A stretch of DNA of 4,397 bases from IMG/VR virus record IMGVR_UViG_2778261570_000021, positions 1 through 4,397 of that record. The stretch is one strand, 5' to 3'. Made by a program: the position numbers. Source of the stretch: a virus. Taxonomy: Duplodnaviria; Heunggongvirae; Uroviricota; Caudoviricetes. This document shows, in pieces, positions 1 to 3,000 of this stretch (position 1 is the stretch's first letter; each line of letters starts with the position of its first letter).

Positions 1-3000
1 CCGGAAAAATGATCACGCTGGATAATCCACCAATCCCGGGGAAACAATCGCTGGCAAAGAGGACGTCAATTCCTCTGGTAAGTCAGGTTGAGTTTTCGAC
101 ATCATCATGGCGACGGGCGGTTCTGTCTCTTGAAGAACACCATAAAGCCTGGTTGCTGTGGTGTTACAGTGGCAGCATTTGCTGGGAACATCAGATTGCG
201 ATAACTCAGTGGGCGTGGAATGAATTTAACGCGCAATCTGGTACCAGAAAAATTGCGGAGAAAACACGGGAACGCCTGAAAAAATTAATCTGGCTGGCGG
301 TGCAGGATGTGAAGAGCGAGCTGGCTGGGAGTGAGACTTATGAATATCAGGAACTGGCTGAATTGATGGGGGTTGCTAAATCCACATGGACAGAGACATA
401 CCGACCTCGCTGGGAGATTATGCGTGACTGTGTTACAGGCCTGGACAAAGATGCGCTTATATCGGCAATGCACTTACGTTCACAACAAAAGGTATCTAAT
501 ACCAGGTTAAATATTGCAAAACCGAACTGAAAAGTGTATTTTGCGCATAAATCTGATATTTTGCCGATTTTTTACGCGATGGCAAAGTAAGCAAATCCCG
601 CCGCCGAGCGGGTTTTTTGTTGGCTTAACAGGTTATAATGTATAGTGCGAAACTGCCTGTTCAGCAGAATCATTTTGTTTGTAGTGGAGTTCACAAGTCG
701 TCATTATCAGGCAAAGAGATTTATGGTATTAAAGTATCAGCCGTCTGTTCGTTCTGTTTTAATGTGTGATTTTCGGGGAATGGTTGTTCCGGAAATAGTC
801 AAGGTCAGGCCAGTGGTGGTCGTGTCCAGAAACAGGCACAACAATCAATTGGTAACAGTGGTACCAATAAGCACTACTGAACCGCTCCCTCGCAGAGATT
901 GCCATCATGAGTTATCAGAAAACCCCATACCTGGTAATGAGCATATTACTTGCTGGGTAAAATGTGACATGTTGATGACGGTTTCATTGAGCCGACTGGA
1001 TCGCATAAAAACCAGAACCTGGGAGGGACGAAATTATATTGTTCCTATGATTGCGGAAGATGAGTTTGAGAATATTAAACGGGCGGTATTGCACGGGATA
1101 GGGATGGCTTATCTGTATCGATAATCGTTTTCGATTATCGAATTCGATATGAATTTATATTGACACACATAGTGTGTTGGCTGATACTGTCGCTGTACCC
1201 TGATGGGACTTGTGAGACTTCCGAACAGGAAGCCAGGAGTAGCGATGAGGTGATGACAAGCCTGCTGCCCCTGTGTAAAAGGCACCTTAATGGTGCCTTT
1301 GTCGTTTTTATCAAAAGATCCCGCCACTGAGCGGGTTTTTTTGTGCCCTAAAAACGGCACAGGACGTTAAACGCGCTGGTGGTTGCGAATACGGGTCTTT
1401 CAGCTTGCTGGCTTTTTCGACAAGAGGTATTGGTATGTCACGTTAACCAGAAAAGGGAAAAGACATGCTAAAACAGCAGGATATGACTGAAACCGCCAGA
1501 GTGGTGTTTAATGAATTAAGCGTCACTGAACCGGCGACCGTCGGGGAAATTGCGCAGAATACTTACCTTTCACGTGAACGCTGCCAGTTAATACTGACCC
1601 AGCTTGTTATGGCGGGTCTGGCAGATTATCAGTTCGGTTGTTACAGACGCCTTCCGCAGTGAAGGCTTTTTTATTTGTGGTAATGGGCGGCTGGTGGGTG
1701 TTAGCGGCACCTGCCAGCCATCTGCTCATGCGTTGGGGTCACAAGCAAACCTCAGGCCCATCTGCTTTGCGCAAAAGCAGTATGAGCCTATCAGAGAAGT
1801 GCTTATTGATCTATGGCTAATACTGTAAAAATATCCAGTTGTGAGTTAATCAACGCTGATTGCCTGGAATTTATCCAGACCTTACCGGAAAACTCTGTCG
1901 ATCTGATAGTCACAGACCCGCCGTATTTTAAAGTGAAGCCCGAGGGCTGGGATAACCAGTGGAAGGGCGACGATGATTACCTGAAATGGCTGGATCAGTG
2001 TCTGGTGCAATTCTGGCGGGTACTGAAACCTGCCGGAAGTCTCTACCTGTTCTGTGGTCATCGCCTGGCATCTGATATCGAAATCATGATGCGTGAACGC
2101 TTTAATGTGCTGAACCACATTATCTGGGCGAAGCCGTCCGGACGCTGGAACGGATGCAACAAGGAAAGCCTGCGGGCGTATTTCCCGGCAACAGAACGCA
2201 TTCTGTTTGCAGAACATTATCAGGGGCCATACCAGCCCAAAAATGACGGCTATGCGGCAAAGGGGCGCGAGCTTAAACAGTGCGTCATGGCCCCGCTGAT
2301 TTCTTACTTTCGTGATGCGCGTGAATCACTGGGAATAACGTCAAAACAGATAGCGGAAGCCACCGGAAAGAAAAACATGGCTTCGCACTGGTTTGGTACC
2401 AGTCAGTGGCAATTACCGAACGAGGGTGATTACAACAAATTGCAGGCGTTGTTTGCGCGTGTTGCGGCAGAAAAACATCAGCGCGGGGAACTGGAAAAGC
2501 CACACCACCAGCTGGTCAGCACATACAGTGAACTGAACCGGCAATATGCCAGCCTGCTGGAAGAGTACAAATCTTTGCGGCGTTATTTTTCCGTATCGGC
2601 AGCCGTTCCTTATACGGATGTCTGGACGCATAAACCCGTGCAGTTTTATCCGGGCAAACATCCCTGTGAAAAACCGGCGGGTATGTTGCGGCAGATAATT
2701 GAGGCCAGCAGCCGTCCTGGTGATTTGGTTGCCGACTTTTTTATGGGGTCAGGCTCCACAGTAAAGGCTGCATTGTCGCTGGAGCGCCGTGCGATAGGTG
2801 TGGAGCTGGAGGCTGTACGGTTTAACCAGACAGTGAAAGAGATAAATGCGCTGGTGGTTAATCAGGCAGATAAGTGTTACCCGGAAAAATAACTAATTCC
2901 GATATGGTATACCTGATTATTGTTAGTTTGCTTATCTTTTAGTATCTTCCTGCTCAGCAGGATCCCCCTGCAACGACGATTGTATGATGAATACCTTTTA

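Follow-up and report, generated by a model that had tools for sequence, protein, structure and literature searches.

Analysis of a 4,397-nt stretch of DNA (positions 1 to 4,397 of IMG/VR virus record IMGVR_UViG_2778261570_000021; hereafter the window), the late-regulatory region of a lambdoid Escherichia coli prophage with its features all on the + strand, revealed two neighbouring elements downstream of the late antiterminator gene Q: an open reading frame (ORF) for a 133-amino-acid (aa) protein of the MazF/PemK fold, and a gene for a conserved structured small RNA. We read the ORF (723-1124) and the RNA (approximately 1195-1308) as one two-part, type III-like protein-RNA toxin-antitoxin module of new architecture, with a probability of roughly 0.5. 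The initial annotation had described the ORF as an apparently orphan toxin gene; it is not an orphan, because a conserved structured RNA gene almost always adjoins it, on the same strand in approximately 170 of 176 ORF-bearing loci. The parts of the module in the window are as follows.

723-1124, + strand: YifN-type MazF/PemK-fold protein gene, ATG start, 133 aa, putative endoribonuclease toxin.
1160-1188, + strand: predicted sigma-70 promoter of the RNA, TTGACA-17-GATACT, 10/12 matches (promoter scan).
1192-1312, + strand: conserved structured small RNA of about 115 nt, transcript approximately 1195-1308 (alignment and RNAalifold, covariance models, covariation).
1198-1200/1205-1207, + strand: helix P1 of the RNA (RNAalifold).
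1205-1218, + strand: conserved linker GGGACUUGUGAGAC of the RNA.
1218-1222/1228-1232, + strand: helix P2 of the RNA (RNAalifold).
1234-1242/1265-1273 and 1249-1251/1260-1262, + strand: helix P3 of the RNA, closing the near-invariant apical loop GAUGACAA (1252-1259).
1278-1300, + strand: terminator hairpin and U-rich tail of the RNA.

Conservation of the RNA was apparent from comparison of the window with ORF-less E. coli sites and with Enterobacter and Xenorhabdus loci, and its gene begins 70 nt downstream of the ORF. The RNA motif follows the ORF in 20/20 enterobacterial-clade viral loci with a protein identity of at least 63%. Covariance model R1 was built from 13 enterobacterial-type sequences only (E. 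coli, Enterobacter, Xenorhabdus and related viral contigs). In distant chromosomal homologues it locates the RNA approximately 5-100 nt past the ORF and on the strand of the ORF, with E-values down to 1e-21; the hosts include Pseudomonas, Caulobacteraceae, Geobacter, Neisseria, Vogesella, Pasteurellaceae, Massilia, Pantoea, Dechloromonas and Limnohabitans, together with metagenome-assembled genomes (MAGs) of Anaerolineales and Saccharibacteria. The count of 170 given above combines R1 with a second model (R2), built from 53 matches. Only four distant loci carry the ORF without a detectable RNA, and the covariance models had no match in the ORF-less control loci L017 and L018 (loci are designated here by L and a number). 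The ORF occurs in 24 of 5,426 complete E. coli genomes, each time in this prophage context, and the RNA in 36 complete E. coli genomes, comprising all 24 with the ORF and 12 with the RNA only. The ORF of E. coli SE11 (NC_011415), a natural lysogen, has 99.8% identity to that of the window. Among 44 viral contigs with the RNA pattern, the ORF is present in 26, absent from 16 and reduced to a fragment in one (L221), the 44th locus being cut too near the match to be scored (its contig carries the ORF in L115). Such one-sided dependence is what one would expect were the RNA to protect against the protein. In L152 and L156 the order is permuted, with the RNA directly upstream of the ORF (E ~1e-4; weaker cases are L158, L160 and L094), an arrangement that favours a module of two components over a 3' untranslated region.

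Individual loci show further arrangements. Vibrio phage 10N.239.311.A09_PE001 (PQ189296.1; L222), a 13.5-kb temperate element classed under Vinavirales, ends in a gene for a 37%-identical homologue, which is preceded by cro- and LexA-like genes and has an RNA match (E=3.5e-5) 142 nt downstream. Seven IMG/VR contigs (L190, L192, L194, L195, L211, L213 and L216) have a Qlambda-family gene, a promoter TTGATT..TATGCT and then directly the RNA, with both the toxin gene and an earlier terminator absent; there the RNA would be the leader transcript of the late promoter pR', and its terminator would be the pR'-associated terminator tR'. Three other IMG/VR contigs (L215, L219 and L220) hold RNA-only copies beside genes that by eye are tail- or baseplate-like, far from any Q gene, the L219 copy having its own TTGACT..CAATACT-like promoter. 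A group II intron (RF02001/RF01998) starts approximately 80 nt past the RNA in the Saccharibacteria MAG (L051, 3611-3907), and an element of the integron-associated sRNA-Xcc1 family lies approximately 120 nt past it in a Pasteurellaceae locus (L026, 3631-3719); the terminator of the RNA seems to attract mobile elements.

The 13-sequence alignment folds with RNAalifold into three hairpins followed by a terminator, and the window RNA taken singly adopts the identical fold, with a minimum free energy of -43.9 kcal/mol (z=-4.5). Its most conserved unpaired parts are the linker GGGRCUUGURAGAC, the 8-nt apical loop of P3, a GUGAA past P3 and the tail CUUUGUCAUUU. In a 53-sequence alignment, 98.5% of pair cells are canonical and 16 of 19 pairs show compensatory double changes, with 228 double-change cells against 53.7 +/- 9.2 in shuffles (0/500) and 13-33 when partners are slid by 1-3 columns, counts that speak somewhat less strongly for the module than their size suggests, the alignment having been fitted to the model, which inflates pairing somewhat. 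The same helices had been predicted beforehand by the independent RNAalifold run on the 13-sequence alignment. E. coli and Enterobacter share 87% identity in the RNA core, against saturation of synonymous sites in the adjacent ORF. Rfam 15 gave no match to the RNA at E<=1 for the window and nine diverse loci, and a search of the open-access literature yielded nothing about the RNA sequence strings, about a module combining PemK with an RNA or about what YifN does.

The promoter of the RNA is equivalently placed in Enterobacter (9/12) and Xenorhabdus (11/12), its -35 element starting 2-36 nt past the ORF stop codon across the three genera (36 nt in the window). In approximately 42 of 57 diverse loci the -10 element ends 4 nt ahead of RNA model position 1, and a promoter score of at least 9/12 is reached in 54% of loci against 1.6% of background windows. 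Because this promoter is positionally fixed, the RNA is, as judged from sequence, an independent transcript. A small peptide encoded in the RNA region was ruled out by a 1-nt indel between E. coli copies and by frame changes between genera. Pairing between linker GCUUGU and loop ACAAGC as a pseudoknot, and between the loop and the 3' tail UUGUCAU, was likewise rejected, since some variants do not covary (for example L051 and L072, with linker CCGGU and the loop unchanged, and L054). No tandem repeat was found at the RNA locus, where the RNA is single-copy.

It is unlikely, in our estimate, that the RNA serves first of all as a regulatory small RNA of phage or host (for example a late leader like lambda 6S RNA or StxS) to which the protein, in a ribonucleoprotein, would be a processing, stabilising or chaperoning partner and need not be toxic. 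Such a role would suit an RNA that stands alone in about one third of cases, directly after a Q-proximal promoter without intervening terminator in the L190 group and beside tail genes in L215, L219 and L220, and the several near-invariant single-stranded stretches would serve as trans-acting seeds; it fits poorly, however, with the invariance of the MazF catalytic-site equivalents in the protein, with the near absence of the protein without the RNA, as a toxin-antidote relation predicts, and with the presence of the module at many non-phage chromosomal sites.

The 133-aa product matches Pfam family PF02452 (PemK_toxin) with E=5.6e-14 and 52.7 bits (cut-off 23.1), as well as PHROG families phrog_1936 ('MazF-like growth inhibitor') and phrog_15698. 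The AlphaFold2 model, made from 33 homologues (mean pLDDT 91, pTM 0.85), has the predicted SH3-like barrel of the MazF/Kid/CcdB fold, and the top 50 Foldseek matches listed against PDB are all MazF-family toxins (MazF, MoxT, YdcE; prob 1.0, E ~2e-6, TM 0.64-0.82 normalised to the target) from S. aureus, Bacillus species, M. tuberculosis and E. coli, with E24A crystal forms of MazF also among the PDB matches listed. In the hhalign alignment, the first 52 residues are matched to E. coli MazF, interrupted only by a 2-residue gap after residue 37, and residues E24, R29 and S50 stand opposite E24, R29 and T52 of E. coli MazF, which we take to be its catalytic-site residues. All three are invariant in the 33 homologues and belong to only 13 invariant columns of the family alignment. 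Fold and invariant residues together suggest that the protein is a YifN-type MazF-fold endoribonuclease. The MazF/PemK fold proposed in the initial annotation is thereby borne out, profile searches placing the protein inside, not outside, the MazF family.

Between genera, pN of the ORF (nonsynonymous differences) is 0.12-0.24 against a saturated synonymous pS of 0.67-0.85, a mark of purifying selection; because pN is low against saturated synonymous sites, the ORF is a functional coding gene. Its homologues carry PF02452 in 113 of 113 cases (JGI label 'YifN (PemK superfamily)'; genome annotation 'type II toxin-antitoxin system PemK/MazF family toxin'), and scans yielded 508 relatives in species-representative genomes and 142 in viral contigs. 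The foreign codon usage noted earlier was confirmed, and its arginine tally is exact (AGA 3, AGG 2, CGA 3, CGG 2, CGT 1, CGC 2), to which five ATA codons and a GC content of 43.8%, against approximately 50% in the neighbouring methylase gene, can be added; rare arginine codons are not peculiar to the ORF, the partial Q gene having 7/11. An alternative GTG start at 645 (159 aa) was rejected, as it lies outside the mobile segment described below and is not conserved.

Several genomes of Shiga toxin-producing E. coli (e.g., L002, 4222-4566) are annotated with the toxin starting at Met20 (114 aa), though the upstream ATG and the 133-aa frame are intact, and the same genomes have a 65-aa 'hypothetical protein' annotated across the RNA gene. 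The family's namesake, yifN of E. coli K-12 (L179, 3960012-3960460), is a pseudogene with several stops and an insertion; the RNA was looked for beside it and not detected. A perfect 11-bp palindrome, ATCGATAATCG-TTTT-CGATTATCGAT (1118-1143, no strand; sequence reading and E. coli alignment), overlaps the ORF stop codon. Its loop reads TTTT in the window and AAAA in other E. coli copies (L001-L003), a difference that looks like an inversion, as hairpin-mediated template switching would give; the palindrome is confined to E. coli and is not in the Enterobacter or Xenorhabdus copies.

We consider it rather improbable that the protein is a domesticated or inactive MazF fold that is non-toxic (for example an RNA-binding regulator) and would need no antidote. 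The gene is under strong purifying selection, there is no variation at the positions opposite MazF E24, R29 and T52, and toxin-less RNA sites exist while RNA-less toxin sites are almost wanting; these observations stand against a failure of single-sequence search to find a solved-structure relative, a score of 13.9 bits with the NCBIfam MazF equivalog, far under its 120-bit cut-off, a family-specific insertion and a C-terminus longer than that of MazF (133 aa vs 111), and the pseudogene state of the K-12 yifN relative.

No plausible antitoxin ORF lies upstream of position 723 in the window, where, as stated in the initial annotation, only the Q gene and a terminator (597-620) are found and no MazE/PemI-type ORF. 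Two 43-aa ORFs (514-645 and 638-769) were rejected as antitoxins, since they straddle module junctions and are not conserved, as was the 65-aa winged-helix protein encoded at 1465-1662, a backbone gene present without the toxin in approximately 290 E. coli prophages and in phiP27. Homologue neighbourhoods were examined in Enterobacter, Xenorhabdus, Pseudomonas and Geobacter, in 80 species-representative genomes and in 80 viral contigs, and neighbouring ORFs that encode 35 aa or more and lie no further than 300 nt away were clustered in 95 loci and then in 35 phylogenetically diverse loci. No partner ORF conserved across genera was found there, the only cross-genus clusters being antisense shadow ORFs over the conserved 3' coding region. 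The missing protein partner is thus, on the evidence of these neighbourhoods, a property of the family, and the suspicion that an upstream antitoxin had simply been deleted here is excluded, no such protein being conserved in homologous loci. As no adjacent co-transcribed gene for a MazE/PemI/AbrB or ribbon-helix-helix (RHH) protein, the defining antitoxin of type II, was found, the system is not a type II module. The sole candidate protein partner seen in the family is a 64-aa ORF, RHH-like by eye, which ends 7 nt before the toxin gene in one Anaerolineales MAG (L029, ~2800-2995); the RNA is also present there.

The surroundings of the module in the window comprise the following features.

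1-530, + strand: 3' part of the Q late antiterminator gene, Q82 family (PF06323, E=1e-67; phrog_304).
515-543, + strand: putative late promoter pR', weak, TTGCAA-17-TATTTT, 8/12 matches (by-eye reading; below the promoter-scan threshold).
597-620, + strand: intrinsic terminator, probably tR', in copy 1 (595-628) of a 34-nt direct repeat (terminator scan).
671-1167, + strand: mobile segment consisting of a 52-nt leader, the ORF and a 43-nt tail with the -35 element of the RNA promoter (alignment of the window with L004, RNA-only, and L001-L003).
1278-1300 and 1320-1335, + strand: terminators downstream of the ORF (terminator scan).
1318-1351, + strand: second terminator, stem 1320-1335 plus T-run, copy 2 of the 34-nt direct repeat (terminator scan and repeat comparison).
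1465-1662, + strand: 65-aa winged-helix gene.
1813-2892, + strand: N6/N4 DNA methylase gene.
3079-3155, + strand: phage tRNA-Arg(UCU), reading AGA (ARAGORN, Rfam tRNA).
3507-3899 and 3889-4167, + strand: two holin genes.

The ORF is the first protein-coding gene past Q, pR' and the first terminator, upstream of the holin genes (3507-4167), and a promoter scan detected no sigma-70-like promoter between the 597-620 terminator and the ORF ATG, nor in the corresponding interval of the Enterobacter and Xenorhabdus loci. A terminator separates Q from the ORF in all three genera, with the ORF standing behind a Q82-family gene in the window, a Qlambda-family gene in Enterobacter and a Q21-family gene in Xenorhabdus, and nine of ten upstream genes tested in viral contigs encode Q proteins, of all three families. 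The three Q families are non-homologous functional analogues (PMC9388147). This recurrent placement supports, and does not prove, Q-dependent expression; because of the position past the terminator, the lack of a detected promoter of its own and the recurrence behind three Q families, induction-coupled expression is a reasonable inference. L005 was rejected as a Mu-type (Mor) context, since a Qlambda-type gene remnant lies upstream, and it is not an independent context. Most family members are chromosomal and the family is not phage-specific, so that host shutoff in the late phase, suggested at first as the role of the toxin, is a special case at best and not the family's general function.

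On the orphan reading of the initial annotation, an antitoxin-less toxin would be harmless only through transcriptional silence, kept by the terminator after pR' and by rare codons until Q frees it, in which case the RNA would be an unrelated late-leader passenger. We consider this very improbable: the RNA accompanies the gene in chromosomal loci of distant phyla without Q or a late operon, and a passenger is not expected at fixed distance and strand, with covariation, over that range, even though the gene has no protein antitoxin, no detectable promoter of its own and a terminator upstream, recurs behind three unrelated Q families and is rich in rare codons (3 AGA and 2 AGG) with a tRNA-Arg(UCU) in the same late region. 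Hardly probable at all, and the least so of the readings considered, is a type I-like control in which the RNA base-pairs with the toxin mRNA leader or start and blocks translation or triggers decay, since Xenorhabdus does not share the 11-nt perfect match seen by eye between the RNA loop region and the Enterobacter leader (in E. coli, 9 bp with two G-U pairs), RNAduplex pairing of the RNA with the mRNA 5' region is no better than in dinucleotide shuffles (216, 62 and 289 of 300 at least as good in the three genera), the toxin is not a small hydrophobic peptide, and the RNA lies on the same strand without overlapping the ORF.

Under the two-part protein-RNA module, which we prefer, the RNA would neutralise the protein, most simply by direct binding, by analogy with type III systems. 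Bound RNA would keep the MazF-fold protein inactive, possibly as a pseudo-substrate through two conserved unpaired motifs, GGGRCUUGURAGAC in the linker and GAUGACAAG in the loop. A lysogen would make the RNA constitutively and in excess, and the toxin only by leak-through at the terminator; upon induction, antitermination by Q would raise the toxin mRNA, and read-through polymerases may disturb production of the discrete RNA, leaving free toxin late in the cycle and RNA cut. Alternatively or additionally, the module may act as ToxIN does, an infecting phage stopping host transcription, the labile RNA decaying and the toxin aborting the infection. In phage genomes that have only the RNA, it may serve as an antidote to host modules of this kind.

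Several points weigh against this reading, in addition to the inflated pair counts mentioned above. Adjacency and covariation prove that the RNA is functional and linked to the ORF, but they do not tell which partner controls the other. Copies of the RNA without the ORF are common (about one third), and as the RNA looks like a plain pR' leader in one phage group, it may have a role that has nothing to do with the protein; being single-copy, usually downstream and non-tandem, it is unlike every known type III system. PADLOC found no defence model matching the protein. As to induction, the location of pR' in the window is an inference from a weak 8/12 match, and a conserved TATAAT (634-639) could serve the ORF as a promoter in lysogens. 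More tentatively than for the module in the window, and at somewhat less than even odds, YifN-type proteins with their RNA may form a new and widespread protein-RNA toxin-antitoxin class, in principle of type III, with a single structured RNA antidote under its own promoter, which would explain many 'solitary' PemK/MazF toxins; phages would then use toxin plus RNA as a Q-coupled late ribonuclease or lysogen defence, and the RNA alone as a counter-defence decoy.

The Q gene of the window has 79% nucleotide identity to that of phage 82, the full-length product being 229 aa in E. coli loci L001-L004. A block of homology shared with PPompW prophages, consisting of Q and approximately 90 nt downstream, stops exactly at 620, past the terminator, which fits a Q-qut-tR' unit, and in the Enterobacter locus a TTGACT-18-TATGCT sits between the Q gene and the first terminator. 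The two 34-nt direct repeats (595-628 and 1318-1351) are 82% identical and enclose the entire cassette of spacer, ORF and RNA; approximately 290 further E. coli genomes match the window only from 1320 on, as backbone without the cassette, and homology to phiP27 starts at 1318-1351 too, so that the cassette could be gained or lost by recombination between the repeats. Within it, the segment 671-1167 is missing from the RNA-only E. coli sites (n=12), with a CAT microhomology at both junctions. The 50-nt spacer (621-670) is invariant among aligned E. coli sites, occupied and RNA-only alike, and contains a perfect TATAAT (634-639) followed by TATAGT (641-646), with no good -35 element; they could act as a promoter, or else as a sigma-dependent pause element.

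The slot following Q is a hot spot for cargo (L003, 4731-5651; L018, 1200-2429). In phiP27 it holds a GIY-YIG nuclease gene and no toxin gene is annotated there; in strain C5 the toxin-RNA cassette is followed by a 306-aa HTH-domain protein, at the place taken in the window by the 65-aa gene and the methylase gene, and in PPompW prophages tRNAs come after the terminator. In phiP27, the closest Stx phage, stx2e follows the methylase gene and tRNAs, which corresponds to approximately 3156-3500 of the window. The stx-equivalent locus assigned to the ORF at first is therefore right as to the Q-to-lysis interval and wrong as to the phiP27 stx2e slot, the position after Q being that of the GIY-YIG gene. 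The window region matching the stx2e position (2893-3500) holds only the tRNA-Arg(UCU) and four terminator-like hairpins (3016-3037, 3327-3345, 3354-3375 and 3466-3481), and its equivalents in relatives contain Thr and Gly tRNAs (L001), Ile, Arg and Arg tRNAs with a type I restriction-modification subunit M gene (L002), or a TolA-like gene (L004).

Cargo ('moron') genes such as stx sit in the Q-to-lysis interval of lambdoid phages, and StxS is reportedly a short pR' leader RNA like lambda 6S RNA (work attributed to Sy and colleagues, 2020). The ORF resembles such cargo in being the first coding gene after Q, in its foreign composition and in the duplicated terminator that brackets it, and the RNA apparently is a pR' leader in some phages; unlike that cargo, it is not in the phiP27 stx2e slot and belongs to a self-contained module that is also found outside phages. 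An orphan toxin in a cargo slot would be of modest interest alone; the main interest lies in an uncatalogued and widespread RNA tied to a family of 'solitary' MazF-like toxins. Taken with the phage copies of the RNA alone, the recurrent placement behind Q antiterminators of three non-homologous families points to a possible role in an arms race. For comparison, phage PhiTE is said to escape ToxIN via a phage-encoded pseudo-ToxI RNA (work attributed to Blower and colleagues, PLoS Genet, 2012), and the phage genomes with the RNA partner and no toxin (16 of 44 viral contigs) are what a counter-defence antidote would predict; the parallel is purely one of analogy, and loss of the toxin could just as well have left the RNA-only sites behind, a toxin fragment persisting in L221.

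With the MazF/PemK/Kid type II toxins (PF02452) the protein shares the fold, the family-level match and the equivalents of E24, R29 and T52; it differs from them in having no adjacent MazE/PemI/Kis-type gene, a structured RNA gene as its conserved neighbour, and the insertion and extended C-terminus of the uncharacterised YifN subgroup. Pipelines nevertheless call it a type II toxin, though it is without a protein partner and a conserved structured RNA travels with its gene. The solitary MazF-mx of Myxococcus xanthus, which likewise has no MazE-type gene adjoining, is reportedly neutralised by the unlinked transcription factor MrpC (work attributed to Nariya and Inouye, 2008); there the antidote is a protein encoded elsewhere, whereas here the candidate is an adjacent RNA.

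The type III systems ToxIN, CptIN and TenpIN provide the closest parallel, in that an endoribonuclease-like protein is linked to an adjacent non-coding RNA gene on the same strand, transcription signals between the two favour an excess of RNA, both mobile elements and chromosomes carry the system, and a role in phage defence is plausible. ToxN itself has a Kid/MazF-like fold; the Pfam scan of our protein gives only PF02452 and no ToxN/AbiQ-type family. Known type III antitoxins are tandem short-repeat arrays upstream of the toxin, which processes them (PMC3401426), whereas the present RNA is one non-repetitive three-hairpin molecule of approximately 115 nt, usually downstream and with its own promoter. 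Because it has neither upstream tandem repeats nor a ToxN/CptN/TenpN toxin, the module is type III-like, yet outside the definition of type III. If the RNA is the antidote, it would represent a new architecture among RNA-antitoxin systems and a new RNA family for the databases, and would link a MazF-family toxin proper to neutralisation by RNA.

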